Origin: Psammoneis japonica
Taxonomy: Eukaryota
NCBI GenBank assembly: GCA_008632985.1
Contig: QPGO01000030.1
Coordinates: 62,001 to 126,000 of the forward strand
DNA: 64,000 nucleotides
Direction: 5' to 3'
Shown: positions 4,015-49,159 of the stretch, piece after piece
How the letters are laid out: every line of letters begins with the position of its first letter
Position numbering within the stretch: the first letter of the stretch is position 1
The notes under the pieces: generated by a model
What the model was told of the DNA's origin: nothing
Database searches by the model: none
Seen by the model: the letters and a program-made list of their open reading frames with translations, nothing else
Program-made: the position numbers and the translations under genes

Positions 4015-4027
4015 TTCGCCTCCCCAA
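4015..4027 (-). promoter_or_regulatory. Polypurine tract (plus-strand primer)
   Basis: Minus strand reads TTGGGGAGGCGAA immediately before the TG of the 3' LTR. Confidence 0.8.
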
Positions 4028-6575: not shown

Positions 6576-6942
6576 TGCACTGTGCTCGAAGAACGAGTGT
6601 AAACGAAAGTAGAGCAGTGTACGAAAAGTGGAAATTATGAGATTAAATTTTGCTCTGTGATTTTTGGTTTCTCCGAACGAGTTCTCAATGGCCTGAAGCT
6701 TCTGTGCTGCTTCTGCAGACAAAAGGCCTTTCGGAGAATGTGTTCGTGACAACAGATTGTCCGGGTACGATTGCTGTTGACACATGAGATGTCAACATCG
6801 TCAATCGATCGTATTTGCAATTCTCGACATCCGATCAACTCTGTGTGATCGTTCTGTCCTTTGCACGCATCCACGACTGTGGCATGATTGACGTGCAAAT
6901 AACACACAATCACAAACATGCACACAACAGTCGCGTGCTGCA
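6576..6942 (-). repeat. 5' LTR of the Gypsy element
   Basis: Direct repeat of 3648-4014. Confidence 0.95.
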
Positions 6943-9900: not shown

Positions 9901-10100
9901 GGCACATCTGCCCACAGCTGTGAATGTGGATTTGCGCATGCACTGCGGCGCAAACTGGCACTTCTTTTATGCTGTCCATGGCTGTGAGTTGAGTGTTGCA
10001 CAAGGCATGACTGAGCTTGTTGCAGAAAGCAGCTCTGACAAGATCTGCACAAACTTTGAGGCTGAATTGTTGGTTGACAAACTCTGGAGCTGTGAGAGAC
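6943..10100 (+). mobile_element. Decayed non-LTR (LINE) retrotransposon with RNase H domain (diatom Ambal-like); probably continues left of the Gypsy insertion
   Basis: Fragmentary motifs in order: post-RT region (PKLEHQRSSSRKV..FNGVG ~7860-7925; KLLWKFC ~8125), RNase H-like pieces (GSFKEA ~8880; KGELWGICS..LC..GCNN ~9010-9110; NAETDLLTKACW ~9340). Heavily frameshifted and TA/CG-depleted. Boundaries approximate. Confidence 0.6.
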
Positions 10101-10949
10101 TCAGGGTGACCACCACTTCAAACTGGTCCTTCGATGGGGTTGTTTTTTGACACACCAGGTCAAACGCAGCTTTCGCTGGGGAAGGAAGATGCATGTCCAC
10201 CAAAGTTGACTGACAATCAGCAAAAATCAGGCAGAAGTGGGCTGGCAGTTTGCTTGCACACACAAAGCACTGCAGCAAAAACACTGCACCACCCACTCAC
10301 TGATGATTTGTGTGCGCGCCAGCAGGACTTCTCAAGAAAAAGTGCTTGTCAAGAAGCTCGCTTGTGGCACAAACGCCACACAAGCAACATTGCTCAGCTC
10401 TGGCATGTCAAATGCTGGGTGCAGCACCAGAAACAAAACAAAGCAAAAGGTTGTGGGAGCTGGCTGGGAAGTGCTTCTCATTCTTTCACCTGTTGTTGGT
10501 GCGTGGCAGGCACTGTGTGGTGGCACACCAGTCAAGAGACATGACGGAAGCTCTTGAAGGAAAGCAGCAGGTGCTTTTTAACAGCCAGACAGCCTGCTTT
10601 GTGAGCACACCATGGCTGGCAGCATCGATGGGGCATGGGCTGGCACAGCCGCAAGCAACAAAAAGGGTGTTTGAAAAGCACCCGAAAAGACATGTTAAAA
10701 ATTGAACGGGGATTGAGGGACGGGAGACGACAGACGCACATGATTTGTCCGATTTTCCGAAAAAGAGGCCTTTTGACCTCTTCGGAGTTCTCGTTGCGCC
10801 GCGTTCGCAGAAAACAAAAACACCGACGTCCACAAGATCGCACACAAAACAAACCAGGAAGATCAAGAAGACCTCCTTAGCTACAGCAACGAGAAGAACG
10901 ATAACAGTTGCATCGCCTACGATCGAACAAGAGAAAAGAACAAGACATC

Positions 10950-12665
10950 ATGAAGATTGTCATTGTAGGAGGTGTTGCTGCAGGCGCCAGTGCGGCTGCA
11001 AGAGCGAGACGTTTGGATGAGCGAGCTGAGATCCTTTTGCTCCAGAGTGGACCCGACGTCTCCTTTGCGTCCTGTGGCATGCCTTACTACATTGGCGGCG
11101 AGATTAGGGACCGCGGAAAAATGGCTGTGCAAACTCCCAAGAGCTTGCATGCGAGACTAAACATTGATGTCAAGGTGAACGTGCGAGTCGAGAAAATTCT
11201 CGTTGACGAACAGAAAGTGTCAGTAAAAGACGAAACTACGGGTGACACGACGACGGTGGATTACGATGAACTCGTCTTGGCGGTTGGTGCAGAGCCATTC
11301 AAGCCTCCGATCCCTGGCATTGACCGCAAAGGTCTCATGTCTCTCCGAAACTTGGACGACATGGACAATATAAAGTTCTGGATCGATACCAAGAAGAAGA
11401 ACAGTCCAGGAATGGAAATGCACTGCGTTGTGGCAGGTGCCGGCTTTGTTGGTCTTGAAATGGTGGAGCAACTCGTGAATCGGGGTATCCATGTAACTGT
11501 CGTGGAAATGTTGCCGCAAATTCTCGGTCCTTTGGATGTTGAGATGGCTGCAATTCTTCAGAAAGATCTAGAAGCGCGAGGCGTCACGGTCTTGACAGGC
11601 GATAGCATTGCAGAGTTCAGGCCATCTGACAACGGTGATAGCGACGACACGGTCGTGGTTCTCAAGTCGGGTCGCGCTCTTCCTCCTGCTCAAGTGACAA
11701 TCCTGGGATTAGGAGTTCGTCCCGACACCGCAGTCGCAAAAGATGCTGGAATCGAATGCACCAAGCGAGGCCACATTGCCGTTGACGACTCTCTTCACAC
11801 CTCAGCTCCGCACGTATGGGCCGCTGGCGACGCTGTTGAAGTTCGCAACCCCATACTTGGAGGAGACGCAAAGTGGGCCGTTCCGCTAGCCGGACCAGCT
11901 AATCGTCAAGGAAGAATGGTGGCTGACAACATCTACGGCAAGGGACGCAAGTTCAAAGGCACATACGCTGCTAGCTGCGTGAGAGTTTTCAATTTGCTGG
12001 TTGCTTGCGTAGGCTTGAATGAGAAGTTCCTTGCCGCAAACAATATGCCGTATGAGAGCGTCCATGTTCACCCTGGTAGCCACGCAGGATACTTCCCAGG
12101 CGCTTGCTCTGTGAACTTGAAGCTCATCTTTAACCCCGAGAACGGACAAATCTACGGAGCTCAAGCCGTTGGTGAGGACGGCATTGCCAAGCGTATCGAC
12201 GTCATCTCCACTGCAATGCAGGGCAAATTGACCGTTGAAGATCTTGCCGAGATTGAACTCTGTTACGCCCCTCCCGTTGGCAGTGCAAAAGACCCTGTCA
12301 ACATGGCTGGCATGGCCGCCCAGAACGTCATGGAAGGATTCGTGACCCAGATAGATTGGAAGGATCTTCCCGCGGCAGCACAAGATCCAGACACTATCAT
12401 TCTTGACGTTCGCGGTCCCTCTGAAATACTGAACAATGGAACACTCATTGAGGGGGCCCTCAACATTCCGCTCAATGACCTGAGGGGACGACTCGATGAA
12501 CTCCCCAGGGACAAGCGAATCATTGTTTCTTGTGCCTCAGGGCAGCGGGCGTACTATGGGTGTAGAATCCTCAAGCAGAGTGGCTTTGAACGCGTTGACA
12601 ACTTGAGTGGTGCCTTCAAGACGTATAGCAAGTCGCCGGTCTACATTTCAGGTGTTCCGAATTAG
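10950..12665 (+). CDS. CoA-disulfide/persulfide reductase with C-terminal rhodanese domain (CoADR-RHD / Npsr-type flavoprotein)
   Basis: GGVAAG FAD motif, SFASC redox cysteine, GAGFVG NAD motif, WAAGD, CYAPP dimerisation motif, rhodanese CASGQR. Intronless, 571 aa. Confidence 0.93.
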   Translation: MKIVIVGGVAAGASAAARARRLDERAEILLLQSGPDVSFASCGMPYYIGGEIRDRGKMAVQTPKSLHARLNIDVKVNVRVEKILVDEQKVSVKDETTGDTTTVDYDELVLAVGAEPFKPPIPGIDRKGLMSLRNLDDMDNIKFWIDTKKKNSPGMEMHCVVAGAGFVGLEMVEQLVNRGIHVTVVEMLPQILGPLDVEMAAILQKDLEARGVTVLTGDSIAEFRPSDNGDSDDTVVVLKSGRALPPAQVTILGLGVRPDTAVAKDAGIECTKRGHIAVDDSLHTSAPHVWAAGDAVEVRNPILGGDAKWAVPLAGPANRQGRMVADNIYGKGRKFKGTYAASCVRVFNLLVACVGLNEKFLAANNMPYESVHVHPGSHAGYFPGACSVNLKLIFNPENGQIYGAQAVGEDGIAKRIDVISTAMQGKLTVEDLAEIELCYAPPVGSAKDPVNMAGMAAQNVMEGFVTQIDWKDLPAAAQDPDTIILDVRGPSEILNNGTLIEGALNIPLNDLRGRLDELPRDKRIIVSCASGQRAYYGCRILKQSGFERVDNLSGAFKTYSKSPVYISGVPN

Positions 12666-16551: not shown

Positions 16552-18252
16552 AGCATGGGTGACTAAAGTCGATACGCAAGACTACAGGAGCGAAAAAAAC
16601 GCGCCGCAAACGACCAACGCCAACACAACCATGATGTTGATGGTTTGAAACGTTTTGAAAAACGAATCGATACAGCACCCGTGCCATTGCCACATGATTA
16701 CAAAACTTGCTTTCACCACGGGAATGCCCCTTCTTCGAGGTTCGCACGGTACGTACTTTCTACGAGACTTTTGTACCAAAGACTGATGAGAGCGCACCGA
16801 ATCTCTTCCTCGGTCGAGTCGCCATAATTTTCAGAATCGCTTCTGGTTCACAGGTCAACCATGAAAGTTATTCATAGCACCCTCTTCTTCACGGCCGTTG
16901 TCTCTACCATGAGCACTGGTGCCGTCGCCAACCCTCTTCCTGCCTCGCTTGTCAACGCTGCAAAGCGCGGTGCAAGCTCGTTTGCGATCAAGGCGACCGA
17001 GACTATTGCAACGATCCGTAAAGACATCCAAGGCAAGTTTATGGCTGTGATCACTCCCGTGGATATCGAAAGCGTCTCCAACGATTACCACAATATCGTC
17101 AGCAATGCCGCTCCCAGCACTACGCCCTTTGAAGAAACTCTCGTCGACTCGAGCTTCTGCGTTTCGTTTGACGACGCCGGGTCGCCCAACAGCTGGGTCC
17201 AACAACTCCTTCGTAACACGACCCCCACTATTGTACCAGTGGAAGCTTCAAACACGTTTTGCGTCTATTTTGAGAATGACAATGGGGACTCCAACGCCGC
17301 CAGTCTCTCACGAATCCTCCACAACAACACTCCGCTTCGAGAACCAACCGCATCGTCACTCAAGACCAGCACTTTTTTGGAAATTGTTTGGGAAATCAAG
17401 TCGGAAATGGCATCAGACACGTTCAGCACGGCTCTTTTGGATATTAAGTCAGGAATGCATCGTATTTGGAACCTTGTAGACGACATGTCGACACGCTTTG
17501 TCACGGAATTGCAGACTCAAGCGACCGTTTTGCAATTGCGCAATACTACTACTACGCAACTTCAGAAGCCAACTTTGTGGAAGCCCGATGATATCGAGTT
17601 CGGGCCGAGCAATTGGTGGAAGAGAGTCGAAGAAGTGTCAAAGTGGGTTCAGACTAGCGTCTCGCAAGGATTCAGGACGACTGCTGCGTCGTTGGGACAG
17701 AAAACCATGTCGACGATCGACGACTTTGGGTTGAGGGAGCACAAGTGGTGGAAGAGAATCCAAGACTTGTCGGAGTTGCTTCAAACCAGCGTTTTGCAAG
17801 GAGGCAAGACGACTGCTATGTTGTTTCAGAAGCCCGACGAATTCGAGTCGACGCTTGACAATTGTTCGAAGAGAATCGACGACATTCAGGCTGCCGTCAT
17901 GAAAGACATCAAGACGTTTTCGCGGCTTTTAGAACCCATTTCTGTGAAAGAGGTCATTGACAATTTGTGGAAAAGAGTAGACGACGTGTCCGAGCGGATT
18001 GAATCTGTTTTGGGCTTTTTACGAATCTCAACCCTGCAAGTGGGACAGAATGCAACCGAAGCGGTTGGGAGTCTCGATTAGCATCTTGGGACGCATAGTA
18101 CTAGTTAGTCACGAGGGGAAAAGTATAGAGCAATATTAATCATGCACCGTCACTACTTTAGCTAGTTGAAATACACAGTGCAATACTTGGAATCGCAGAA
18201 CAGTCCCTCCTTTAGCGAGTTGAATTGAGCGAGTTCTGAGAACTAGAGATTT
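16552..18252 (+). repeat. Left arm of a ~1.7-kb inverted segmental duplication
   Basis: Reverse complement of about 22688-24391, including upstream and downstream flanks. Confidence 0.95.
16861..18081 (+). CDS. Hypothetical secreted/targeted protein with helical WKR[VI] repeats (copy 1)
   Basis: Intact 406-aa ORF with a hydrophobic N-terminus, kept open in both duplicates. Confidence 0.8.
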   Translation: MKVIHSTLFFTAVVSTMSTGAVANPLPASLVNAAKRGASSFAIKATETIATIRKDIQGKFMAVITPVDIESVSNDYHNIVSNAAPSTTPFEETLVDSSFCVSFDDAGSPNSWVQQLLRNTTPTIVPVEASNTFCVYFENDNGDSNAASLSRILHNNTPLREPTASSLKTSTFLEIVWEIKSEMASDTFSTALLDIKSGMHRIWNLVDDMSTRFVTELQTQATVLQLRNTTTTQLQKPTLWKPDDIEFGPSNWWKRVEEVSKWVQTSVSQGFRTTAASLGQKTMSTIDDFGLREHKWWKRIQDLSELLQTSVLQGGKTTAMLFQKPDEFESTLDNCSKRIDDIQAAVMKDIKTFSRLLEPISVKEVIDNLWKRVDDVSERIESVLGFLRISTLQVGQNATEAVGSLD

Positions 18253-20609
18253 ATTCTACAGAGTGTAGTGTACCCTGGGTAATTTTGATTGCTCAATTGG
18301 ATGAATGCTATCATCGCTGTAGGACTGAATCCCATACAGGACTCGATCATTGTCAACCTGGATACAAGCACTCCAAAAAATAAAGCAGAAAGCCCGAAGC
18401 GAAGAGACAGGCCCAGACGAATCAGCACAAAGGCGCTTCGAAAGCGGGAGTGTTGAATGAATCACAGTCGAGTACAGAGGTCCGTGCAGCTGAAGAAGGC
18501 GCTAGCAGTTTGCTCAGTAGACATCACAAGCCAAGTGCAAAGCCACGTATGGCTTCCGGGTTGTCGTTGGTGCTGACAATCTTAATGTACTTGTCAACGA
18601 CACGCATTTGCAAGTTTGCATAGAGAGAAATTTCACAATATAAGCTTGACGAGTCCACGAGTCCTTCCGAGGTTGATCACAGAATCAAGCTACACGAGTA
18701 CTCACTTGCTGTTTCACGGTCAAGGGAAGTTAAGCAAGACAAGTACAATCCATCAGTCTACAAACAGCAGAGCGCATGATTTCTCCTCTAAGTCTAGCTT
18801 TTTCGATTTTTGACTTCCAGCTGGCTTAATTCAGCCAACGTCCCTGTTGATCCCGTATCCTTTTGGTCCCTCTTCATTGTTCCAAGGGCCAACACAGCCT
18901 CCGCCAAACCCAGAACAGCGCTCCATGACGAGTCAGGAGATTCGTATCTGTGCAGCTAGGCAAAACAAATGGCACGACGGACATGACGAACTAGTAGGTA
19001 TCCAGCGGCACAAACCCGGCCAGGACCTGGGACTCAAGCTTCCAAATATCAGCGTCCCACAATAGAAGATCTTGACGGTACAGGTGGTGAATGGTTGGCC
19101 TTCGGTATTGTTCAGACTCAACGACCTGTTGTGCGACTGACGTGTAGGCGTCGTTTCGATTCCCCAGAGAGTAGTATTCTGCGCGGTGAGAATGAAACGC
19201 CGTGCTTGAAGTTCTGCAGATATGAAAGAGCAAGAAAAAGGGTCAACATGATGAGTGCAACTACCGCAAGTCATCCACAATGTCGCCACCCACACTACTT
19301 ACATCAGCACTCTGTCGTCCAATGCATTCTGAAAGGCCGCACTCGCCGCTCGGTGAAAATTGATTTCTCGATCAAACGAGCACGTTACAATTATGGATTC
19401 ACCGAGCTCCGCTACGTCTGGTTTCAAGTCAGAGGGAGCATAGGATAGGCTCGTGCAAACGCCCGGCATGCCGCATCTCTTGCGTGCGCTCCAACGCTGC
19501 TGTGGCCTCGACGGACATCCTACTGCACAACAAAGAAGAAAAGAAGGATAAGCTCTAGAGTGAATACTTGCGAGCACCTCCAAACCATCATGACTCAACA
19601 ACACGCTCTTCACCAATCTCACCTGTATCGCGTTTACGACGACCCACACCACATCTTGTAATCGATTGGGCAGGGAGCAAGACAATACGGTAGCCAGCCC
19701 CATCCTTTCTTGGATGTTCAAACTTTATCAACAAGGAGATAAGACATCGTCGGCACAAACCGAGGGTCATCTCTCTGTGATTCGCCCTATACCCTTGGCT
19801 TCCGACCATCGAATATCGGTAGCAGAGCATCCGTCAAGGACGCCATCGTCTTCGACGAGATCAACCACCTCCATTAACCAGGCTCCGCTTTCGTCGCAGT
19901 CTTGCGCCACGGAGGTTGACATGTCGTTGTGAACCGATTCTTCTGGTGGCGGCGCTGTCTTGGTAGCGCTAACGCTAGACTAGGTTTTCAGCAGCAACAA
20001 CCTTCCCACTCAGGGCAGCGAGTGAGCACATGCCATGCGAGCAAACCACTTTTGTTTGCATGAGCTCCATCATTAGAGATCAATTGGAGCATGTTTTGCA
20101 AATACCCACCATGCACTGCATGACTCCCATTTTAGAAGTATGAATCCGCATCCGGTTCTTGAAGAATGATGTCTTTGGAATAGCTTTAGAGTGCTTTGAG
20201 GTGAGATTGCAACTCCGGTCTCGACAACCAAGAAGCCAAACACCAGGCTGCCGTTTCACAAGGTAGGGCATGGTTGTTTGTTCAGAACAAACATTGTTTG
20301 TCCAACTTGATACAGATTTCCAACACATCCACAGATAAACAGATTCTCATTCCGCATCTTGTTGCTGCTGTAAAGACTTGTTGTGCTCCTCTGGCGTCAT
20401 TAGCATTGGTTCAACATCGCTCAACTCGTGTGATCAAGTCGAATTTTCTTGCGGCCTTGTTTTCGAGCTGACTGTTGTAGAAACCATTTTTCAACACATG
20501 GATCAAAAGTCATGACCATTTGTGTACAGTTCAGCGCAAACAGCAAGCACAAAAGAAAACACAAAAATGATGCTCGCATTTCTTCTGGTTCTTCTTGTAC
20601 CAAAATACA

Positions 20610-21979: not shown

Positions 21980-22687
21980 CCACGACCGGCAAATAAGATA
22001 CGTATACCTTTCAGACTTTTAAGCTTTTTCATAAGGTTTGAGAATGTGTGTGAAGTCTCACACCAGCTCTGGAGATACATCTTCGCTCTCGCCTTGTCAA
22101 AGTTGCATGGTTTCGTTTTGGTCCACTCCCTCTCTAGGTTAGGAAGGTATAGGCATGTTGAGTGCTGCTCCTGTTGGTCATGGGTTGGTTAGATAGAAAG
22201 TTCAAACCTCAACGTCCTTTTTGGTGGACCAAGGCGAAAACGAGATTCAATCTGGATTTTCATACCCCGACTTTCCATGCCGCAGCATGTCGTGATGCCT
22301 TCTAGTACTCGCAGCAAGAAAATACACTCATCTTGGATATTAACTGCCCTCGTGACGAGTAAGGAGTAGAGCGGGATAGGACTGAACACACCTTGAACCT
22401 GAATGCAGGTATCGCAATTTCAAACTGCGCTCTACGGAAAATGTTGACTAAACGAATATTCCGCGCTGGCAGCAAGATAAGAGCGGAGAATCCTCTTCGC
22501 GATGGGTATCCATACCTTTGGACAACGTTTCCATGAGCCGCCGCAGCGTTCATACACCTACACAGCTAAACCCTCGTATCCCGTATTGCATGTCTTGATC
22601 GGCACTAAACTAGATATTTCAGTAGCATCATTCATTTCTTCCCATAGCAATCAAAACTGCCAGAGTACAGTACATCCTCTCTAAGAC

Positions 22688-24391
22688 AAATCTAGTTTTC
22701 AGCACTCGCTCAATTCAGTTCGCTAAGGGCGGGATCATTCTACGATTCCAAGTATTGTGCTGTGCATTCCAACTAGCTAAAGTAGTGACGGTGCATGATT
22801 AATATTGCTCTATACTTTCCCCTCGTGACTAACTAGTACTATGCGTCCAAGATGCTAATCGAGACTCCCAACCGCTTCGGTTGCATTCTCTCCCACTTGC
22901 AGGGTTGAGATTCGTAAAAAGCACAAAACAGTTTCAATCCGCTCGGACACGTCGTCTACTCTTTTCCAAAAATTGTCAATGACTTCTTTCACAGAAATGG
23001 GTTCTAAAAGCCGCGAAAACGTCTTGATGTCTTTCATGACGGCAGCCTGAATGTCGTCGATTCTCTTCGAACAATTGTCAAGCGTCGACTCGAATTCGTC
23101 GGGCTTCCGAAACAACATAGCAGTCGTCTTGCCTCCTTGCAAAACGCTGGTTTGAAGCAACTCCGACAAGTCTTGGATTCTCTTCCACCAATTGTGCTCC
23201 CTCAACCCTAAGTCGCCGATCGTCGACAAGGTCTTCTGTCCAAGCGACGCAGCAGTCGTCCTGAATCCTTGCGAGACGCTAGTCTGAACCCACTTTGACA
23301 CTTCTTCAACTCTCTTCCACCAATTGCTCGGCCCGAACTCGGTATCATCGGGCTTCCACAAAGTTGGTTTCTGAAGTTGCGTAGTAGTCGTATTGCGCAA
23401 TTGCAAAACGGTCGCTTGAGTCTGCAATTCCGTGACAAAGCGTGTCGACATGTCGTCTACAAGGTTCCAAATACGATGCATTCCTGACTTGATATCCAAA
23501 AGAGCCGTGTTGAACGTGTCTGATGCCATTTCCGACTTGATTTCCCAAACAGTTTCCAAAAAAGTGCTGGTCTTGAGTGACGATGCTGTTGGTTCTCGAA
23601 GCGGAGTGTTGTTGTGGAAGATTTGCGGGAGACTGGCGGCGTTGGAGTCCCCATTGTCATTCTCAAAATAGACGCAAAACGTGTTTGAAGCTTCCACTGG
23701 TACAATCGTGGGGGTCGTGTTACGAAGGAGTTGTTGGACCCAGCTGTTGGGCGACTCGGCGTCGTCAAACGAAACGCAGAAGCTCGAGTCGACGAGAGTG
23801 TCATCAAAGGGCGTAGTGCTGGGAGCGGCGTTGCTGACGATATTGTGGTAATTGTTGGAGACGCTTTCGATATCCACGGGAGTGATCGCTGCCATAAACT
23901 TGCCTTGGATGTCTTTACGAATCGTTGCAATAGTCTCGGTCGCCTTGATCGCAAACGAGCTTGCACCGCGCTTTGCAGCGTTGACAAGCGAGGCAGGAAG
24001 AGGGTTAGCGACGGCACCAGTGCTCATGGTAGAGACAACGGCCGTGAAGAAGAGGATGCTATGAATAACTTTCATGGTTGACCTGTGAACCAGAAGCGAT
24101 TCTGAAAATTATGACGACTTGACCGAGAAGAGAGATTCTTCGGTGCGCCTCTCATCAGTCTTTAGTACAAAAGTCTCGTAGAAAGTACGTACCGTGCGAA
24201 CCTCGAAGAAGGGGCATTCCCGTGGAAAAAGCAAGTTTTGTAATCATGTGGCAATGGCACGGTTGCTGTATCGATTCGTTTTTCAAAACGTTTCAAACCA
24301 TCAACATCATGGTTGTGTTGGGCGTTGGTCGTTTGCGGCGCGTTTTTTTTCGCTCCTGTAGTCTTGCGTATCGACTTTAGTCATCCATGCT
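22688..24391 (-). repeat. Right arm of the inverted segmental duplication
   Basis: Reverse complement of about 16552-18252. Confidence 0.95.
22855..24075 (-). CDS. Hypothetical secreted/targeted protein (copy 2)
   Basis: 406 aa, near-identical to 16861-18081. Confidence 0.8.
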   Translation of the reverse strand: MKVIHSILFFTAVVSTMSTGAVANPLPASLVNAAKRGASSFAIKATETIATIRKDIQGKFMAAITPVDIESVSNNYHNIVSNAAPSTTPFDDTLVDSSFCVSFDDAESPNSWVQQLLRNTTPTIVPVEASNTFCVYFENDNGDSNAASLPQIFHNNTPLREPTASSLKTSTFLETVWEIKSEMASDTFNTALLDIKSGMHRIWNLVDDMSTRFVTELQTQATVLQLRNTTTTQLQKPTLWKPDDTEFGPSNWWKRVEEVSKWVQTSVSQGFRTTAASLGQKTLSTIGDLGLREHNWWKRIQDLSELLQTSVLQGGKTTAMLFRKPDEFESTLDNCSKRIDDIQAAVMKDIKTFSRLLEPISVKEVIDNFWKRVDDVSERIETVLCFLRISTLQVGENATEAVGSLD

Positions 24392-25699: not shown

Positions 25700-28600
25700 A
25701 AGTCTTTGCAAGTCAACCCCGTGGACTGTCAGCTCTTGTTTTGTCCATTTGGTGGAGGCGAACTAAAGATCTGGTGCAGCTTGCCAACATCAACGCTTGG
25801 GAGAAATAAAAAATGAAAGCATGAGCTGCGGCTTGAAGAAAAGGCATCGAGAACCTGCGTGATCATGGTGTGTCGAAAGGTGGCATGGGTGCCAAAACAA
25901 TGTGACTCATCAATTTTGTGAAACATGTTGTGCCAGGGGGGGCATGAACCCAATCACTGCCAGAGCTCAGCATTCTTGAGTGGTTGTCATGACGTTTTGT
26001 GGCAAATCTGTCACTCTGATGAGATGAGTGGCACCTCTGCTTCTTTTGCGGATGGTGCCACCTGAAGAGATGGTGTGCTGTAGAAAAGTGTTTCAGTGCT
26101 GCTTCTGGGCCTCTTGAAGACAGAATTGCAAATGCCCACATCTCTCCAGTGGTCTCTGACTGATGAAGAATGCCAGCCTGCAAAGGGCCATCTAACAAGT
26201 GCTCATTGCAATGAGTGGCTTTGGCCACTGCAGCTTCCACTGGCAACAACAACAAAAAAGGTGCTTCATCCACTGCTTGCAACACTCAATGTGCCAAACC
26301 ACATTGAACACACCCTGTTTCAACACAAAACAGCCCTGTTGTGGTTCCTCATGATGTTGGTGGGGCATTGTGAACAACAAGTTGCTGAACACACAACAAC
26401 TCCCTCAAACAAAGATGCACTGCCACAGGGCTGGTGGGAACATTTCTTGTTTGGGAGAAGAGCCCTCTGGTTGTTCCTGGTTGGCTCAAGCCATCACAAT
26501 TTTTTCCTCATTTGGCATGAGAAAAAAATTAGTGTCTCACCTTCTTTGAGCACTGCATTTGTTCATCCCAAGGTGATTTGCTTTGCACTTTGCTCTCACC
26601 TGTTGCTGTTCCTCCAACTCACATGCTCAGGTGCACAAGGAGCACCATTTCTCCCTTGTTTGTAATGCTTTCAATGTCAAGGGTGGGGCAAATGCCAGAG
26701 GAGAGTGTGAGCATTCCATCTTGTCTCACAATCCTTTAAAAAAGTTTCTGTCTTGCCCCCTCATTGTCAGCAGTGGACTCTGCTCTCAATGATGACATCA
26801 TGCAGAGAGACATGTTGAGAAAAGCACTTGTGGGCTCAAACAACACTTGGATTTGCCAACCAGTCTTGGCTGCTGCTTCCTCAAAAGTCATCAATGCCAG
26901 TTGCTTTTTGTGCTCAAAATTGGCTGCTGGGCCAGTCCATGACTTCTCAACAAAGCTTTGACTCCAAAAAGTCAGCCACCCGCTCTTGGTCAACCCGGCT
27001 CTTGTGGCCATCACAGCCAACATTGTCATCTCCCTTGAGATCACTGTGCCATCACATGGAACAAAAATGTGTTCAGTTGGAGTTTTTGTGCCTCTGTTGA
27101 CAAAAATGTTGTTGCCAAAGAGCTTGCTCCATGCTGCAGAAGAGTCAAACTTAGAAAGCTTTGCTTGGCCCAGGGGGGCACTGTGGTGAGCCAATTGTCA
27201 AGAGCAACAGCAACATGACATGCTGGCAAGGCAGTGGCAAGCATGTTTGGTTTGGCACTCATGTGGGTGTTCAAACATGGCAATCAGATGCTGCATTGTG
27301 TGAGCCAGCTGAGCAGCTTCCCCGGGCATTTGCCATTTTCTTGTTTGGCACATGCACAGGGGAGCAACAACTCTGGCTGTGCAACAGTTGTGAAACTCAG
27401 CGTGATGCCAATGACTTTGGGCAAAAACGTTGCAAGTGCTCCCAAGAACCAGCTTCAGGGTTGAGTGCACTGTGGTTGAACAAACACAGTGGTGTGTGTG
27501 GAGCAGTGGAAAGCAGCCACGGGGCTCCACATCAACAACTTCTCACCAACAGACAGCTGTGTGGATCATCACAGCATGGGCTGCAGCAGACGTGGCAGGC
27601 AGCTGCAATGTTTTGCTTCACAACTCCTCCTTGTGGCAGTCCTTTGGGTTGGAGTTCCCAGTCATGGTGAGGCTTGTCTCTTTTTTGGGGCGCCCCTCAA
27701 GCAAATTTGTTGCACAGCCACTGGAACGGTGCATGGCTGACACAGTGCAAAAGGTGGGAACCTCGGTGGTGCACAACACTCCTGTGCCCTGCAAACAAAG
27801 GGTCGTGAAAGCCAAGATGCTTTTAAAATGGGCCAACAAAGTTGCTGTTGCAGCATGGCAAAATGGAAAGAGGGGCGCCAGAGACCAAAATGACCAAGCA
27901 GCGCAGTGTGACTTTTGGAGTGGTGGCCTGGGGGCCAGCAGTGCTGTGAAAAGTGGCCTTGTTGAGCAAAAACAAGATGCTCTTGAGGTGAGCCAGCATC
28001 ATCTCTCAGCACACAGCAGTCACACAGCTCTTTTGGTGGTGGACAAATGAGACATCACAGCTGAGTCTCTGACTCTGTTCAACCTGAAGGCGCGCAGTTT
28101 GTCCGGGGCAGAATTTGGCATCAGGATGAGGGCATGGAAGCTGATCAGATGCTGAGTCACCACCACACCTTGAGAACATCCCATCTGTGTTTGAGACCAC
28201 ATTTTTTGTCGCTGCTCACTCAGCGATGGAGAGGTGACATGTCTGAGGGGTGTTGCCAAGGGCAGCACACTCCCACTCATTCAATGCCGAGGAGGTTGCA
28301 TCATTGAAGAACTTGAGAGCCATGCTGCAGCAATTCAGAGTTGGTCAAATGTGATCACTTGGAGAAATCTGCTCCAACAGCAGCATGAGCAGTTCTCTTG
28401 GTGGTGTTTTTGAGAAGTGTGCGCCGGGAGACACACCCACTCTCCAGCACCGCTTGCAAAGAAAGCTCTGGGGAGTGTGCTGGTGTGGATCACAAGTGGC
28501 AGTTGTCAACAGACTAAGCTTGCAAATTGTGAGACTGCACGGAAGTGTCCTGAGAAGGTGCAAGTGTCCTGGAAAGACACTTCTCACCCCAATCAACAAA

Positions 28601-28750
28601 AGCGCAATTTTTTCACAGCTCGACAGCAACTCCCAAATGATCAGCACACCGCCAAACAAAGTCACAAATGGCATCTTCAATGGAAGGACACGGCGACAAT
28701 TAGAACAAACAGTTTTTCCCAGAACGGAAGAACAGACTAAAAGCAGCCAC
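25700..28750. other. TpA/CpG-depleted hypermutated block (unidentified repeat plus a gene-fragment remnant)
   Basis: Only about a dozen TA in 3 kb by eye; six-frame ORFs essentially lack Tyr. Confidence 0.85.
28165..28320 (-). pseudogene. Degenerate inverted copy of the 5' end of the gene at 28938
   Basis: Translates to LKFFNDATSSALNEWECAA...SPSLSEQRQK versus LMFFNDATSALNEWEYTA...PPSLSEHRQK in the intact gene; frameshifted. Confidence 0.85.
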
Positions 28751-28937
28751 ACATCCACATCCATCATGCATTCAACATTCGAATTCAAACGGAACTTTGC
28801 TCGTGACTGAAACGCAAACACGAATCACCGGCGGTGAGCGAGCGATAATGCCGCCGCCATGGCGTGTGATGGCGTGGTTATTCTCATTTTCCACTTCCCC
28901 CCTTTTTGAGTGTTGACCTTGAGTAGCTGCCACGGCC

Positions 28938-30107
28938 ATGACAATTCCAGATAATCTGATCCTCATGTTCTTTAACGATGCAACCTCAGCGTTAAACGAG
29001 TGGGAGTATACTGCCCCCGACGACGCCTCAGAGTTCGTGACACCTCCATCACTGAGTGAGCATCGACAGAAATTATTGGGTGTACAGCGTTCCTGCCTGC
29101 AACGAGTCGTGTCAGACTATTGTAAGGAAAATGATACAGCTATTTCAATGGAGGAAGCACAAAGCAGGTTGCGAGATTTAAGTGGTACTGACAATATCAA
29201 ACTGAAGGATGCAATGGACCGTATGAACGATTCCGCACGTCTTGCATTTTGTCGCGTCGTTTTGGATGCCGAATGTATCTATGAAGCTCTGAGTAGCACG
29301 AAGGAGCGACGATTGGCTTGCAAGAACAGCGATGATGGACCCATTGAGCGGTCTGCGATTCTCGAATTTTGTGGTCTTTGCAATGCGGCGGTACGACTGG
29401 AGCATGTACAAATTTACCTCCAGGGTGGAAATTCGTCTCCTCTATTGAATGACTGCACACTTGGCGTTGATAGGTCAGAAATAGGATCTTCAATAGACCT
29501 ATCTCAGAGACGACTCGAAAGAATCCAGCAGCTGCTCTTTCGAGCCATTGGTTATGATCCCGAACATGCAGCATCAGAGATTCGACGAATGGGCGCAGGC
29601 TATTACGAAAACGATATTGAGCTACACGAAGCAGTTGCAAAATGCCTTTCCAACATGACGGTAGCAGCTACAAATGCCTCGATTCAACAACCCGCAGAGA
29701 AGCTTTCTGATCATGACAGTGGGGGCGTTACCCGTGTTGTATCAGTCCAGTATTCTGAGCAGATTGTAGATTCGGCTGGTTCTGTCTCAATTGGTGCACC
29801 TCAATCAGAATCTATCCAAGAGCAAGTGGATGAGCAGCAACGACGAGATCTTTTACTTGCCCGCCAAGCAGCTTCCTTACAGCAAGAAATATTGGAAGAA
29901 ATCCTCACCATGAGCGAGCAAGAACGAGATGCGAACCTCCAAGTGGCGAGAGAAGCTCATGATGCGTTTCTGAAAGGAGCATTAGAGATACCCGCCGGTC
30001 CGCAACGGGTTGATTACCTTCGTTCGGTCAATTCTAAGACTCAGAGGCTACTTTTAATTCACAAGCTGTGGGGAAGTTTGGCAGAAAATGGGCAGGAGAA
30101 GCACTAA
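28938..30107 (+). CDS. Hypothetical helical protein (389 aa)
   Basis: Long intact ORF with normal composition. Confidence 0.8.
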   Translation: MTIPDNLILMFFNDATSALNEWEYTAPDDASEFVTPPSLSEHRQKLLGVQRSCLQRVVSDYCKENDTAISMEEAQSRLRDLSGTDNIKLKDAMDRMNDSARLAFCRVVLDAECIYEALSSTKERRLACKNSDDGPIERSAILEFCGLCNAAVRLEHVQIYLQGGNSSPLLNDCTLGVDRSEIGSSIDLSQRRLERIQQLLFRAIGYDPEHAASEIRRMGAGYYENDIELHEAVAKCLSNMTVAATNASIQQPAEKLSDHDSGGVTRVVSVQYSEQIVDSAGSVSIGAPQSESIQEQVDEQQRRDLLLARQAASLQQEILEEILTMSEQERDANLQVAREAHDAFLKGALEIPAGPQRVDYLRSVNSKTQRLLLIHKLWGSLAENGQEKH

Positions 30108-30482
30108 GTGTCTTAGTTTTTATGAATCATGTAAAAAAGGATATGCGGAAGCGTGATACTGAGCCTGTGTGATAAGCACAGAAGACGGGCTGGAGGCCCT
30201 TACAACGGAATGTGTGTAAATGACTGAAATGGTGTTCGCTGTCTTCGTCTGTCGCGCCTTCATCACCCAATTCTAGTCTATAGTACATAATTGTTTTCTC
30301 CCCTTCGAAGGAAATACGCTCTTAGTCGCGAGTGGCTTCGGGTTTGCTAATGTACTATTTCAACACGCGACGACTCTTTCTGGCTTCCCCTGCCTCCTCT
30401 TCAGATCTTTCCTTCGTCAAGTGGACGCTCTCTGTCAACGACATGGTGAGAGCTGAACAAGGATTCTTGCGCGAAAAGGGTA

Positions 30483-30712
30483 CATGCACTGTGAGCAGAG
30501 CAATTGGTGAGGATTGGAGTTCCAGAACGTTGGAGCTCAGCCGAATTCATGTGACATGAGAACACGCTCTCAATCATGCTCACACCGTCATCCTCGTGTT
30601 CCTTTCATGCACTGTGAGCAGAGAAATTGGTGAGGATTGCAGTTCCAGAACGTTGGAGCTCAGCCGAATTCATGTGATTTGAGATGATGTTCTCAATCAT
30701 CCTCACACCGCC
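30483..30712 (-). repeat. Tandem duplication, 123-bp period, at the 3' end of the DEP-ARM gene
   Basis: 30483-30589 matches 30606-30712 (HMNSAELQRSGT.ILTN.SAHSA twice). Confidence 0.9.
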
Positions 30713-33328
30713 ACTCTTCTCTATTTCAAACCAGCACTCAAAGTCTACAGAGAGTGCCTCCAGAGCTTGGAACCCACTGCTCAAGACCGCTATGTCATTG
30801 CTGTGATGTTGGATTGCATTGAGAATAGTGCAGCATCCACCGCAGCCAATGATCTCACTTCGAAACTCGACACTCTCCCCGTTACTTGCTATGGCACCAA
30901 TTGCAGCGCACCCGTGCTCTTGGACTTCGGAACTCTTTAAATGGCATTTCATCGCCCATACCACATTCAACAACAATGATCGCTTTTCACTGTTGCGCCT
31001 CTGCTGGGTCATATCCCGCAACGAACGAAGCGCACACGATATGCTTTTCTCGGATGAGCGACAGTCAGTCAGAATTTCCTTTGCTTGTTCAAGACTCATG
31101 CTCGGCAATGACGACGACGACGAAGAAGAAGCCGACGTTGTCGATTCTACAGTGACTCGTTCCATAAAAGATTGCTCCAAGGACTGTTGTTGCGCGCGCG
31201 ACATTTCAAGGTAATGTAATACAGTGTCCGCATTCCCTTGACATTCTTTGTTGGAAAAGCTATCCGCCGCCTTTGTCAACACCGCAACCACGCCACTGCA
31301 CTTTGCAAGCGTCTCCACATTCTTTTCCTCAAACATGTAATTCTTCAAAGCAAAGCACGCCGCCGAGACAACCAACTCGCTCGCCGGATGAGCAACCATG
31401 GCGCCGACAATAGCATCAATTTCTTCCCTTGACGCAATCGTCACGTATTGGTTCTCTATGTCCACTGCCGAGTTGGACAAAAAGGCAATACCGTCTCTTT
31501 GGATCGCCATTGCTTGCGCCACGGTAAGATTCCCATTCAATTCATGCACTGTACTGCGTACCTCTTGGAGCGAAGAAAACGTCCGAAGCGCTCCCACCGC
31601 GGCTTGTATCACTTTGGCATTCCCTGCGTGTTCCCTTGCAGCTCTCAGTATCAACTCCACTGCTCCAAGAGTTGAGATCTTTGCGCGATTGCTCTTGTCC
31701 AGTGACAGAGACCATAGCACCCTGCACGCTTCTTCTTGCACTCGTGACGAGCTCAGTAGAGTCTCCATGGCCTTGATGATGTCTTTTGGCGCACTGCAGG
31801 ACATTATGCTTGCAATGTATTCACTCTTCTTCTCGTTGTCAGATTTGCACACGTGAAAAAAGACGCCGAGACAATACACGACAACGGGTGCGGCACGAGA
31901 GTGCGTCGTCATGGCGCTCACCAAAACATCCACAACCACTGAACAATCCCCACACGTCATGACTTGCGGCACAAGAGACTTGAGGTCACGAATCGTGGCT
32001 TCCGTATTCTCCCCTCCGTTCCCTTGAGAACCTTCGAGAGACGATGCGTCGACACTACTGCTTCTTGATTGACAAGAGTGCTGCCGCGACAAGGGGCGAT
32101 ATTCCGTTTCTGGTGACTCGCCGTAGCGAAGAGAGGCAGCTGGGATTGAATTCGCTGCACTGGAAACCTCGCCGTATCGCCTTGTCGATCGAGGTCGTGC
32201 AGAAGAATGACCTCGTTTGGACGATGTCGATACTACTCTAATACCCATGCTGTCCGTAGTAGAATGGCTAGATACCGACTGATCCTCATGAATACTGGTG
32301 GAAGTAACTTGCGCAGCACATCCGCTTGCATCTTTTGAATGGTCTCTTTCCAAAAAGCTGTCCAGCTCAGAGCATGATGGATCAAACCGAGAGGACGAAC
32401 CATTTCCAGACTCACTCAAATCAGTGGACGCACGCAAGCTATCATCCTCCCTTGCAACATTTCTTCTTTTCTTTCTTCGACTCTTGCGAGCACCCACTTG
32501 TGGATGACACTGCAAACAACAGCCATGAAGGCTCTCACCCTCGACCGAAAGTGGGATAGAGGTGCGGCTCAGGGGATTGATTCTGCTTCGGCGCACGTCA
32601 TAAAGACGTACCGGATCGCCTGGGCACTCGGGACAATACCCCAGTCGAATGCGTTTTTCTCGAATTTCTTGTCGGGAGAGCACCGACCCGTCCCTGTCCA
32701 AGCACATGTCTCTGTAATTCAATCCAAGAGACGAGCTGCTGCTGCTCATGCCGTTGTGAGACGATGAGTTTTGAATTCGTTCGGATGAATGTCTCGACAG
32801 AAAGCGGTAAAAGTAGTACCCGTCTTCGAATGGGTGTTGTCGAGTCACGTGCTCAAATAGATCGTATTCCTCCGCCATGGCACGACCCAACCGGACCGCC
32901 TCTGTTCGACTAGAGGCCATGTTGTTGTGGAGCATAAAATCCACTGCTTCGCTGCCGACAAAACATGACTTGTAAGTTCTCGCGTGGTATCGACGGTCAC
33001 TCACGACAATACCATCTCGAAATTCGGCACATTCATCCCAGAGTGGTCGTCGTCGTTCCGTCTCGTGTGACGACGAAGTACGTAATGACGACCCACGACT
33101 CTTGGATGAGACGGGCACACACTCGGCTGTAATAATTTCATCATGCTCTGTATTGTTGTTGCTCCTCCTTTCAGATGATCTACGTCTATCGGAACCATTC
33201 GAAGAAGAGACGGGGGCACACTGAGCTGTAATCATGGTTGCACAATGGAAGCGTTGTACGGTATGTTGCTGCTTCTTGTGGAGCTGATGTTTGGGTGCCG
33301 CCATTCTATCCGCTTTCGCTTCATTCAT
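30605..33328 (-). CDS. DEP-domain + armadillo-repeat protein
   Basis: DRRYHARTYKSCFVGSEAVDFM...FEHV..HPFEDGYYFYRF (DEP domain); multiple VQEEAC/VQEHGC ARM-type repeats. Confidence 0.88.
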   Translation of the reverse strand: MNEAKADRMAAPKHQLHKKQQHTVQRFHCATMITAQCAPVSSSNGSDRRRSSERRSNNNTEHDEIITAECVPVSSKSRGSSLRTSSSHETERRRPLWDECAEFRDGIVVSDRRYHARTYKSCFVGSEAVDFMLHNNMASSRTEAVRLGRAMAEEYDLFEHVTRQHPFEDGYYFYRFLSRHSSERIQNSSSHNGMSSSSSSLGLNYRDMCLDRDGSVLSRQEIREKRIRLGYCPECPGDPVRLYDVRRSRINPLSRTSIPLSVEGESLHGCCLQCHPQVGARKSRRKKRRNVAREDDSLRASTDLSESGNGSSSRFDPSCSELDSFLERDHSKDASGCAAQVTSTSIHEDQSVSSHSTTDSMGIRVVSTSSKRGHSSARPRSTRRYGEVSSAANSIPAASLRYGESPETEYRPLSRQHSCQSRSSSVDASSLEGSQGNGGENTEATIRDLKSLVPQVMTCGDCSVVVDVLVSAMTTHSRAAPVVVYCLGVFFHVCKSDNEKKSEYIASIMSCSAPKDIIKAMETLLSSSRVQEEACRVLWSLSLDKSNRAKISTLGAVELILRAAREHAGNAKVIQAAVGALRTFSSLQEVRSTVHELNGNLTVAQAMAIQRDGIAFLSNSAVDIENQYVTIASREEIDAIVGAMVAHPASELVVSAACFALKNYMFEEKNVETLAKCSGVVAVLTKAADSFSNKECQGNADTVLHYLEMSRAQQQSLEQSFMERVTVESTTSASSSSSSSLPSMSLEQAKEILTDCRSSEKSISCALRSLRDMTQQRRNSEKRSLLLNVVWAMKCHLKSSEVQEHGCAAIGAIASNGESVEFRSEIIGCGGCCTILNAIQHHSNDIAVLSSGFQALEALSVDFECWFEIEKSGGVRMIENIISNHMNSAELQRSGTAILTNFSAHSA

Positions 33329-42314: not shown

Positions 42315-43121
42315 TCATTTCCTGCTGTTTGGTTGCAACATTAATGACGCAAAGGTCTTTTGTTTGTTGCCTTTTATCTTTCCTCCGTCAACGCCAGCAT
42401 CTCCAATTCTAGTTCTAATCCGCCCCATTGTATTGGAAACAGCATCGGGGTCTCTTCGTAGCGCTTGTCCGTTGGCGGAAACAAATATTTGACACGAATG
42501 GCCTTTCTTGAGATATTTGATGAGATTATTAACCTTTCGTTCCATATCGTTGTCAGCAATAGCAGCCTGGTGCGGCGCAAGCAAACGTGAGAACGCACCT
42601 GGAACACAGAAAGCACATAAGGACCCCCGCAAAAAACTTACTCTAAACTTGAATTCCTTGAGAGACTTCACACCATTCGATGAGTTTCCTCCTTTTTTCT
42701 TTTGTATCTTATATTCAAATTTTGAGAAATCAACTGCCTTGATTACAGGCGGATCTTGTTTTACGTTCACAGCGACAAGGTCCACGCCCAACTCTGTGGA
42801 CTTTTCGACTGCTTGTGTCAAGGTTACAATTTCTGGGGTTTCTCTGTTTTCACTTTGAAGTATACCTTCATCAACAATAAGTCGTACCTTGACGGACTCG
42901 CCAGAGGAATGTGACTTATTTTGATTCATCAAGACTTTAATCAAGCGTTCGTTTGTGAGCGTCTGGTGTCTTTGGTTTTGTCGTCGAGCCTTCGCTGAAC
43001 TACTGAACCATTCTAATCGATTATCCGTCTTGCCATAGCTAACAAGATGACTGGTGGTGAGGACGCTTGCAGTTCGAAGAGGCAAATTCCTTGAAGCTCG
43101 ACAGCACATCGAAGACAGCAT
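42315..43121 (-). CDS. Organellar (probably mitochondrial) translation initiation factor IF-3
   Basis: NERLI, VDLVAV...DPPVIKAVDFSKFEY, KEFKFR / AAIADNDMERKV...LKKGH. Intron about 42641-42567; basic/Ser-rich presequence. Confidence 0.85.
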   Translation of the reverse strand: MLSSMCCRASRNLPLRTASVLTTSHLVSYGKTDNRLEWFSSSAKARRQNQRHQTLTNERLIKVLMNQNKSHSSGESVKVRLIVDEGILQSENRETPEIVTLTQAVEKSTELGVDLVAVNVKQDPPVIKAVDFSKFEYKIQKKKGGNSSNGVKSLKEFKFRVSFLRGSLCAFCVPGAFSRLLAPHQAAIADNDMERKVNNLIKYLKKGHSCQIFVSANGQALRRDPDAVSNTMGRIRTRIGDAGVDGGKIKGNKQKTFASLMLQPNSRK

Positions 43122-43302
43122 CGTCACCGCTCACTTTGAACTTGCTTTTGGCTTCTTGTTGACTTTGTCTTGTGCGTGTGGATGCGCTGCGCTGGAAGCT
43201 TCTCCGCTTTTTTTCGCGAGACGCGAGAGCGCGCCGCAAGTAAAACACCCATCCCCGCCCCGTCCCTGACCTCGAATGGTCCGCAATCAGTGATTCCGAA
43301 TT

Positions 43303-43320
43303 CTCTCTCTCTCTCTCTCT
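43303..43320. repeat. (CT)n microsatellite at the edge of a TA-depleted block
   Basis: About 9 CT units. Confidence 0.85.
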
Positions 43321-43329
43321 GAAAGTGCT

Positions 43330-44350
43330 GGAGAACACTTCTTGCTTCTTGCATCAGAGCAAACAAATGACCTGGTCATCGGAATTGTGCTTCTTCTCAT
43401 TGTTCTGAAGAGCAACAAGAATGAGTCATTTCCTCACATGGCCAAACCCCAGTGTGCATTTGGACAGGCTGTTGCTGCTTCAGCAAGAAAGCTGGCAAAT
43501 TGGGCCATCCCGGGCGGCGCCAGCACAGCACACACTCTGGATTCTCCACAGTGGCTGCTGGCTGTTGTCCTTCACTGCAAAGACTCCTCCACCACTTGCT
43601 GCATCACAGCCACAGATGGGGCAAGAACTCAACACTCTCACGTGCCGTGCCGCGCACACCACCATCATCAACGTCGTCATCTGGCTTGCACCAGGGCACT
43701 CCAGAGCTGCAAATGCCAAGGGGCATGCACCCGCAATTGCATGGGTGCTGCATGGAGCACACCAAAGAACTCAATGCCAGCACCAAGAAGAGCCCACATT
43801 TCAAGTTTCCGCCAAAGGCATGGCTGGCTGTCTCGCCAACAATCCTGCCACAAAGTCGCCTGCTGTTGCTTGGTTTTTGCCCCCCTCTCTGGGTCAGCTT
43901 TCCAGGGGTGCTTTTTCAACCACCCTCATCTCCAAAGGATGGTGCTTGCAAGTCTGGCTGAAAAGGGGGCACAGCTTTGTGTTCTTTGATCACAGCTGGA
44001 TGCCTGACAGCTTTTGGAGCATTGCATCTCCTCTCACGCCAAGTGCTGGCAGCTGCTGTGCTCCCCAGCTTCGCTGACTGTGGGATGGATGAGTTCCCCA
44101 GTTTTGGCACTGCTGCAGAGAGACCAGCACCAACCTTTCCACGCTGCTTTTGGAAGGACATTCGTGGTTCGGGGCCCCAGCAGCCAGCTCCTCTCCCTCC
44201 CCTTTGGCTGCTTCCAGCCATCACTCCTGACTCCACACTTGCTGCACCACCGCCTGCAACACCTGGTCTACACTGGAAGAAACACACCATCGCCATCGTC
44301 ACCTGTGCAGTCGACAACACAACACGTTTGTCGGTCATGTCAGTGACATG
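43330..44350. other. TpA-depleted block between divergent genes
   Basis: About 1 kb with almost no TA; long Tyr-poor ORFs in all frames. Confidence 0.8.
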
Positions 44351-44745
44351 CATGTCAGCGATGACCACACCTGCTTCAACAGATAATGTTATTCAGAGTT
44401 TAATAAACGTATTTTGATCATAATGGCGGTTCGCGAACGTTATTTGGGCGGGAAAAGTCAGCGACGTGCGACGTGCATGTTGCATGTGCGATGTATGCAC
44501 TTCCAATTTGGCAATGGCTGCTTACTACTCGTACCGCTACACCAGCAGCGCTCCTACTCCGACAGCAGACGCAGACTACAATACGTAATACGTAGAGTCT
44601 ACAAACGACAAACTCGAAGATAGCGAGAGGAGCTAACTGCCGTGAATCTAGTGCAAACAACATCAACGCGCAAGAACACAGACTGGAGACCTACCACCAC
44701 CCCCAACGAATTGAACAACAGCGGCGCAGACAGTTTCAGAGAAGC

Positions 44746-48673: not shown

Positions 48674-49159
48674 GATATCATTCAGAGATGAGTGTTCTGG
48701 CCAATCTTTCTTCGTTGTCGAGGCTTCTTGGTCTCGTTCTTCCGAGTCAGTCTGGTGCGTAGCGCGCTTTTTGTGCCTGTTGAATTTGGACCAAGATTGC
48801 TTTCCTAACCGTTCGCGAGCACCAAACACGAGGGTCTGTTTTTATTGTGTTGTCTCTCTCGAATCTGCTGTATCTCGTTATCGTTGTAGAACTTGTTGGA
48901 CGTTGCAGGGTTGTGAATGAATCGATTTCTTGGAATTCGATTTTCCACTCCAGCCAACTCGAATTCGCACGTGGAGCGATTTCGTGGTATTGAATCTAAG
49001 ATAGAACTCATGTATGTACAAATTTACGTAAACTTCATGGTATCAGTTATGCGCGCGGCGCGCACACGCATCTCACACACGGTCTGGTGGGTGTCGCCAC
49101 ATACACGGAGGCGACACCCCCCGCCCGACCCATTGTGGTGCCGTTGCGTCCTTCCATGA

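Follow-up and report, generated by a model that had tools for sequence, protein, structure and literature searches.

The analysed stretch of DNA (the window) comprises 64,000 nt of Psammoneis japonica contig QPGO01000030.1 (positions 62,001 to 126,000). It contains an intact gene at 28938–30107 and, 0.6 kb upstream of it, a disabled and inverted copy of the 5′ end of its coding sequence. We found that this copy lies in a 3-kb block in which nearly all TA and most CG dinucleotides have become TG or CA, and that the gene itself, outside the block, has a normal content of both. Eight blocks of this kind were detected in the window, and a young long terminal repeat (LTR) retrotransposon in one of them reveals the direction of the TA conversion and its action on integrated DNA. 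We consider it probable that a lineage-specific duplicate was exposed to a regional conversion of TpA and to CpG decay. A preliminary description of the window, which rested on a 54-nt core of the alignment between gene and copy, is thereby partly supported. Its direction of change and its main point were right, but the gene/copy pair is itself light evidence, some of the wording went too far, and there is a very recent precedent in Bigelowiella natans.

The parent gene has 31 homologues, most of them covering 96–99% of its length at no more than 50% identity, and Seminavis robusta is the only named organism among them. Judging from these matches, the gene is conserved in diatoms. A blastn comparison aligned gene positions 28962–29072 with the minus strand at 28317–28203 (85 of 115 columns identical, E 1.4e-14). 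This was the single non-self match when the gene region was compared with the whole window, all remaining matches having E values of at least 0.73. The protein-level search (tblastn) placed residues 6–26 at 28326–28261 and residues 34–58 at 28238–28161, in different frames. A 3-nt insertion is present in the copy, its first frame has a TGA stop, and one matched piece is shifted by a net 1 nt relative to the other. The copy thus combines significant homology to its parent with disabling lesions, as is seen in duplicated pseudogene fragments. It is ~170 nt long, stands head to head with the gene and contains 0 TA and 3 CG. Both the copy and the gene carry the NEWE two-residue insertion, which was found in none of 20 aligned orthologues, and the duplication is therefore specific to this lineage.

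Extension of the alignment with transition-tolerant scoring, as the preliminary description had proposed, yielded nothing more on either side of 28326–28161; beyond codon 58 and upstream (the latter examined as a palindrome) the scores stayed within the shuffle range. A candidate second fragment of the gene, 28661–28684 against 29474–29497, shows two TA>TG differences, but its score was reached by 12 of 200 shuffles and we rejected it as not significant. We also compared 41 ORFs (open reading frames) from outside the blocks with the eight blocks by tblastn and recovered, as regards host-gene fragments, only the gene/copy pair, a self-overlap at a block edge and one weak match. The weak match, of the N-terminus of a gene with an IF3 domain to 554–706, has 24 of 35 identical positions at the DNA level and was taken as chance.

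The full comparison of gene and copy comprises 158 aligned columns with 48 mismatches. All six TAs of the gene read TG (four) or CA (two) in the copy, and no change in the reverse direction was seen. Of the 11 CGs of the gene, the copy shows TG or CA at four and retains one, and six are otherwise different or fall in uncertain columns. The gene and copy strings quoted in the preliminary description are exact in the window, and a recount of its 54-nt core gave the same nine substitutions, of which seven lie at TA or CG: four are TA>TG/CA and three CG>TG/CA, the other two being one T>A and one A>G, the latter creating a CG in the copy. The statement that every TA had been erased thus holds over the full match (6/6), whereas the corresponding statement for CG holds in the core only and not over the full match (4/11). 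The combined asymmetry of TA and CG changes is 10:2. A sign test of the 6:0 asymmetry at TA gives P = 0.031 (two-sided), and at the background transition rate the chance of exactly one transition at each of the six TAs is ~3e-4. The copy is therefore homologous to the gene and has lost its TAs in one direction, to TG or CA, more often than expected by chance.

Blocks were delimited as stretches of at least 500 nt with no more than one TA per 200 nt, and dinucleotide ratios were followed in 500-nt steps. The eight blocks span 16,230 nt of the window and contain 40 TA where 985 are expected and 298 CG where 1036 are expected, while TG and CA together amount to 3599 against an expected 2024. This excess of 1575 roughly offsets the combined deficit in TA and CG of 1683. 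The TA content is 0.04 of expectation in the blocks, where TpA is depleted ~25-fold and CpA and TpG are enriched, compared with 0.56 outside (~0.5–0.6 in the individual steps), where CG is at ~1. Edges could be resolved to ~100 nt, and the erased regions are discrete, lying directly beside DNA of normal composition. When 96% of TA and 72% of CG were converted to TG/CA in a simulation on the non-block DNA of the window, the ratios of CA and TG became 1.80 and 1.82, against the observed 1.74 and 1.81, and the root-mean-square distance across the 16 dinucleotides fell from 0.34 to 0.12. Both strands are equally affected (TG 1789, CA 1810). When the same criterion was applied to 259,317 nt of metagenome sequence from 40 related diatom loci, it returned no TA-free block, which indicates that it is silent on ordinary diatom DNA.

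In the block that holds the copy, the TA edge is sharp and lies ~210 nt upstream of the ATG of the parent gene. The CG loss is less even along the block: four CG are left in 25901–27300, where the dinucleotide is almost absent, and 26 in 27301–28700, where it is partly retained. Contigs built from exact 31-letter words, at a depth of ~60, match the window at 27045–28461 with one difference and at 28463–30547 with none; the sequencing runs behind them belong to a single sample, which is probably the source of the window itself, so that they are not independent of it. The block has the same word depth as the gene and is single-copy by this measure outside 26828–27092, where the depth is two to three times that of the surroundings and the contigs branch at both ends. 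The raised depth and the branching identify this segment as a genomic repeat. A paralogous contig of the segment has five differences, including a TG>CA double at 26867–26868. The location of a host-gene fragment with the NEWE insertion inside a TA-free block bears out the earlier claim that the process also strikes non-transposon sequence.

The direction of the change was read from the retrotransposon at 3644–6946. Its two repeats, 3648–4014 and 6576–6942, have TG..CA termini and are bounded by a 4-nt target duplication (CCAG at 3644–3647 and 6943–6946), and a purine tract adjoins the inner end of the LTR at 4014. On the minus strand between them, the Pfam family RT_RNaseH was matched at 4990–5496 with E 5.8e-5 and 23.6 bits, under the curated cutoff of 24.8. 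By these structural signs, the repeats are the LTRs of one young, internally shortened retrotransposon within an old erased block. The LTRs of one element are identical at insertion. Those of the present element now differ at 33 of 367 ungapped columns, with no transversions. Ten sites are doubles with CA in one copy opposite TG in the other, seven have TA opposite TG or CA, four have CG opposite TG or CA, and two are other A/T>G/C differences. A:T>G:C changes can account for 29 mismatches (20 in the doubles, seven in the singles and two others), 27 of which are at TA sites. Each double needs one change per copy from an ancestral TA or CG. As CG is nearly all retained in both LTRs (21 and 23) and only four differences involve it, the doubles must derive from TA, and the direction is TA>TG/CA. 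In addition, 17 sites of TA origin are no longer alike in the two LTRs of this one element, which shows that the changes arose after integration.

Along the element the number of TAs per 100 nt is ~0 up to 4700, 5–11 in 4700–5900 and 1–5 beyond. Erasure of TA is thus patchy and runs ahead of the loss of CG, and one LTR is almost free of TA although the pair has no transversions. The element looks like erasure caught mid-course: its left kilobase is fully erased, its middle untouched and its right part partly converted.

We also observed a preference for flanking bases. Counted on both strands, the base 5′ of the TAs that survive in the blocks is T in 47 of 80 cases, compared with 22% outside (P 1e-12), and A in 5 of 80, compared with 28%. 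Part of these survivors are possibly new TAs in A/T runs, a weakness from which the comparison of LTR sites is free: of the sites at which both LTRs are converted, 14 of 20 have A as a flanking base, as against 3 of 16 survivors (P 0.003). ATA/TAT is most readily converted and TTA/TAA least.

Table 1. Features of the window (positions of the 64,000-nt stretch; dinucleotide counts are observed vs expected where two numbers are given)
Feature	Position	Strand	Remarks
Parent gene	28938–30107	+	single 389-aa ORF, intact, no Pfam family
Disabled inverted copy of gene codons 6–58	28161–28326	-	blastn, tblastn and site-by-site comparison
TA/CG-erased block with the copy	25771–28730		TA 10 vs 190; CG 36 vs 180; TG+CA 667 vs 370
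TA/CG-erased block	141–1810		TA 2 vs 106
TA-erased block including left part of LTR element	2121–4670		TA 4 vs 160
TA/CG-erased block	6821–10870		TA 14 vs 242; CG 56 vs 260
TA-erased block, half of CG lost	43041–44380		TA 2 vs 70; CG 48 vs 97
TA/CG-erased block	49051–50530		
TA/CG-erased block	55571–56540		
TA/CG-erased block	62791–64000		continues past the window end
3′ LTR	3648–4014	-	1 TA, 23 CG
Internal part of LTR element	4015–6575	-	weak RNase H match at 4990–5496
5′ LTR	6576–6942	-	8 TA, 21 CG, partly converted
Control inverted-duplication arm	16552–18293	+	partner 22646–24391; 1.75 kb, 95% identical, not hypermutated

The same signature has been described in B. natans. In mutation-accumulation lines of this alga, two integrated viral regions acquired 231 new mutations, of which 230 were A>G or T>C, and every one of the 230 lay at TpA; the TpA rate was ~6e-7 per site per generation versus 3.5e-10, or ~1000 times the background (Mettrop et al., bioRxiv 10.64898/2026.01.13.699255). 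The same preprint reports that clusters poor in TpA and rich in CpA and TpG are enriched in reverse-transcriptase and transposase domains, and it proposes an ADAT2-like deaminase as the source of the hypermutation. As in B. natans, the changes in the window are almost exclusively A:T>G:C transitions (29 of 33 in the LTR pair, with no transversions), they fall at TpA and give TpG or CpA on either strand, and they occupy discrete regions beside normal DNA. The window thus carries the same TpA signature in an ochrophyte, near completion. The direction TA to TG/CA, as given in the preliminary description, stands mainly on the LTR pair and on the mutation accumulation in B. natans. There are also differences. 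B. natans is a rhizarian chlorarachniophyte, whereas the window comes from a stramenopile, probably a diatom. TA in the viral region of B. natans is at 0.45 of expectation, as opposed to 0.04 here. Loss of CpG accompanies that of TA in the window, and the term "CpG" does not occur in the main text of the preprint. Finally, a flanking-base preference and a host-gene fragment among the victims are seen here, and new mutations were observed directly in B. natans. In the literature that we searched, the 2026 preprint on B. natans was the only report of hypermutation aimed at TpA, and none was found for diatoms or other stramenopiles.

These observations suggest the following course of events. In this lineage, a ~170-nt piece of the gene's 5′ coding end would have been duplicated and inverted 0.6 kb upstream, and the copy would have ended up in a 3-kb chromosomal block subject to two regional mutation processes acting at the level of DNA. 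The first would be a fast, near-saturating conversion of TpA to TpG/CpA by A:T>G:C transitions on either strand, and the second a slower decay of CpG to TpG/CpA, as known for methylated DNA. Both would have acted on the copy, removing its six TAs and at least four of its 11 CGs; it was disabled by indels and by further substitutions. The target of the processes would be a place and not a sequence or repeats as such, and the erasure stops sharply ~210 nt before the start codon of the parent gene, which is untouched. The blocks themselves are putative heterochromatic remains of transposons, and the silencing assumed in the preliminary description is likewise putative. One LTR retrotransposon is partly erased and the segment 26828–27092 is multi-copy by depth, and Pfam recognised no transposon domain in the scanned ORFs of the old blocks. 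By analogy with B. natans, the TpA step could be the work of a chromatin-guided deaminase that acts on adenine in DNA (A>I, the product being read as G), a reading that we regard as possible but somewhat short of probable.

A first alternative is that both dinucleotides were removed by a single enzyme or process of dual specificity, such as a deaminase that attacks adenine at TpA as well as cytosine or methylcytosine at CpG, in which case two separate processes need not be assumed. This would account for the fact that TA and CG both finish as TG/CA in the same blocks, and ADAT2 enzymes that deaminate A and C in DNA are cited by Mettrop et al. However, the two losses are uncoupled: the LTR at 3648–4014 has 1 TA and 23 CG, and in the left kilobase of the element TA is at ~0 and CG at 0.72–0.75 of expectation. 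This left kilobase and the block at 43041–44380 are TA-free and yet retain at least half of their CG. The loss of TA is separable from that of CG, and faster. Moreover, the hypermutable regions of B. natans, as described in the preprint, have no C>T component, and we consider a single enzyme unlikely. The loss of CG by itself resembles the CpG decay of methylated transposons, in that CG>TG/CA changes are limited to the blocks. Its depletion there (298 vs 1036) comes with a matching excess of TG and CA, and four sites of the copy show the same change. In the diatom Phaeodactylum, CpG methylation of transposons depends on DNMT5a (PMC9998398). Decay of this kind accounts for the CG half of the pattern only, the TA loss being faster, fuller and more sharply bounded.

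Because the mutated sequence is a duplicate, a homology-triggered defence similar to fungal repeat-induced point mutation (RIP), set off by the duplication of the gene's 5′ end, also has to be weighed. Diatoms possess DNMT4 enzymes related to fungal RID (PMC9998398), and RIP, like the process seen here, is a regional transition hypermutation with a strong dinucleotide signature that ruins transposons and spills into adjacent or duplicated host DNA. The chemistry is opposite, though: RIP converts C to T, mostly at CpA, and creates TpA, whereas TpA is destroyed here. RIP is furthermore triggered by duplication and mutates both copies. In the window, the parent gene is untouched, and so is an inverted duplicate of 1.75 kb whose arms are 95% identical and lie 4.3 kb apart. 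These arms contain 59 and 57 TA and differ by 71 mismatches, in which TA stands against TG/CA in a ratio of 3:3 and CG against TG/CA in a ratio of 4:4. Mismatches of the types seen in the LTR pair make up 18 of the 71, a share that differs from that in the LTR pair (Fisher P 1e-11). The process is therefore not triggered by duplication. In addition, the erasure reaches kilobases past the 170-nt homology, in a block that is single-copy by depth except for 26828–27092. We conclude that a RIP-like trigger is highly improbable. Each arm of the control duplicate holds a 406-aa ORF without a Pfam family and is of normal composition.

Slightly less probable still is ADAR-like A-to-I editing of RNA, either of retrotransposon or of retro-copied transcripts, with the edits fixed by reverse transcription. 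Animal ADAR and APOBEC3 likewise produce clustered transitions in mobile elements by deamination, and the 5′ U preference of ADAR corresponds to TpA; an A>G change with a 5′ T fits this preference, as cited in the B. natans preprint. The changes in the LTR pair also come in strand-wise series, with four TG followed by six CA in one copy (P 0.02). These animal enzymes, however, edit RNA or the intermediates of reverse transcription, at a stage that precedes integration, and their edits are expected to be identical in both LTRs. Instead, the ten doubles and seven singles amount to 17 TA-derived differences between the LTRs of a single integrated element. Whole blocks with sharp edges have been erased, and these include the gene fragment and its flanks. 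The copy has no features of a retro-copy, and TG and CA are equally frequent. The changes in the window thus occurred after integration, on both strands, and in DNA outside the element as well.

Several observations weigh against the proposed duplication followed by regional TpA conversion and CpG decay, or limit what can be built on it. In the old blocks, strand-wise clustering of TG versus CA did not rise above the level of non-block DNA, so that long single-strand editing tracts are unsupported. No transposon domain was found by Pfam in the old blocks, including that of the copy, among the 149 of 157 listed block ORFs that were scanned; besides three weak matches to families other than transposons, the scan returned only the sub-cutoff RNase H hit of the young retrotransposon. 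Given the absence of blocks from the 40 metagenome loci, the process may be confined to this lineage, although metagenome contigs under-sample repeats. The gene/copy pair alone gives weak support for the direction (P ~0.03 over a short match). As many as 36 of its 48 mismatches are outside the TA/CG type, 12 of them transitions and 24 transversions, and because of this the copy must be old and its alignment partly uncertain. Two CGs of the copy stand opposite CA in the gene, which consequently is not ancestral at every site.

The comparison with orthologues belongs to the same group of observations. At the position of Tyr24, where the copy reads Cys, 20 orthologues have nine Cys, six Tyr and five other residues; MAFFT put Trp22 in the Tyr24 column, and these counts come from reading the alignment by eye. 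The preliminary description had proposed to fix the ancestral state in this way, but since all orthologues are at most 50% identical and both residues occur among them, neither direction is fixed. Most TA/CG differences other than that at Tyr24 are synonymous, and the orthologues in the 40 metagenome-derived loci are at most 39% identical and for this reason of no use for polarising DNA sites. The earlier assumption that the gene approximates the ancestor is upheld by the invariant and near-invariant columns in residues 6–58, of which the gene retains 7/7 and the copy 5/7 (L47>W, L54>S), but is not supported at Tyr24 and does not hold at the two CA sites.

The short alignment, the many mismatches of other types, the frequency of Cys at Tyr24 and the two CG sites of the copy are also what would be seen if an old fragment had simply diverged, or if the gene had gained TA and CG. 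We rate this lower than RNA editing, since the 6:0 asymmetry is not expected at background rates, the conserved columns favour the gene over the copy, the LTR doubles demand a TA ancestor, and the surrounding 3 kb have 10 TA in place of 190, beside a gene of normal content. Modified bases can cause systematic base-call errors on some platforms, but miscalls at modified heterochromatin bases, or another sequencing or assembly artefact, are the least probable explanation of all, as the word contigs, probably of the same sample, reproduce 27045–28461 and 28463–30547 almost exactly, and neither CA in one LTR against TG in the other nor the indels and transversions of the copy are products of miscalls.

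More broadly, the window could reflect an ochrophyte defence by DNA editing guided by chromatin domains, in which nearly every TpA in a marked domain is turned into TpG or CpA, faster than CpG decays and blind to sequence. A host-gene fragment straying into such a domain would be lost together with the transposons, and, B. natans included, TpA editing would represent an old and widespread genome defence of the SAR group (stramenopiles, alveolates and Rhizaria) that mirrors fungal RIP. In our judgement this falls just short of an even chance. With respect to the main text of the preprint, the present data add that the process acts on integrated DNA, that it can be separated from the decay of CpG and outpaces it, that ATA/TAT is preferred over TTA/TAA, and that a host-gene fragment points to targeting by place. 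Should such conversion be general, dinucleotide signatures in algal genomes would need reinterpretation, false ORFs in blocks without TAA and TAG would mislead gene prediction, and a tractable system would be at hand for discovering a natural DNA adenine editor.

With the stops TAA and TAG erased, the blocks are indeed full of long false ORFs. Across eight listed regions, which include the still TA-rich 4500–7000, there are 157 stop-to-stop frames of at least 70 aa, one of them of 322 aa. In the translations of these false ORFs, Cys, Trp, His and Gln are abundant and Tyr is scarce. A 308-aa ORF at 49541–50467 on the minus strand was judged spurious, as it has no Pfam family and an abundance of Cys, Trp and His. 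An assembly gap of 300 N at 1815–2114 lies within erased sequence, and the blocks at 141–1810 and 2121–4670 are probably a single block. The TA-free zone of the block at 43041–44380 extends, at 43041–43240, across the upstream region and the initial 27 codons of the gene with the IF3 domain (42315–43121, minus strand), and CG counts in it remain high, at 6 and 13 per 100 nt. The overlap may be due to chance across 80 coding bases, or it may reflect erasure at the 5′ end of a live gene.

No Rfam family was matched within the window. At 30483–30713, at the 3′ end of a DEP/armadillo gene (30605–33328, minus strand), a 123-nt unit is repeated in tandem (1.9 copies, 91% identical). The window is eukaryotic in character, with long ORFs that no stops interrupt, and an ochrophyte origin, most likely from a diatom, follows from a conserved oxidoreductase at 10950–12665, whose named relatives, at 65–71% identity, belong to nine diatom genera and to the xanthophyte Tribonema.

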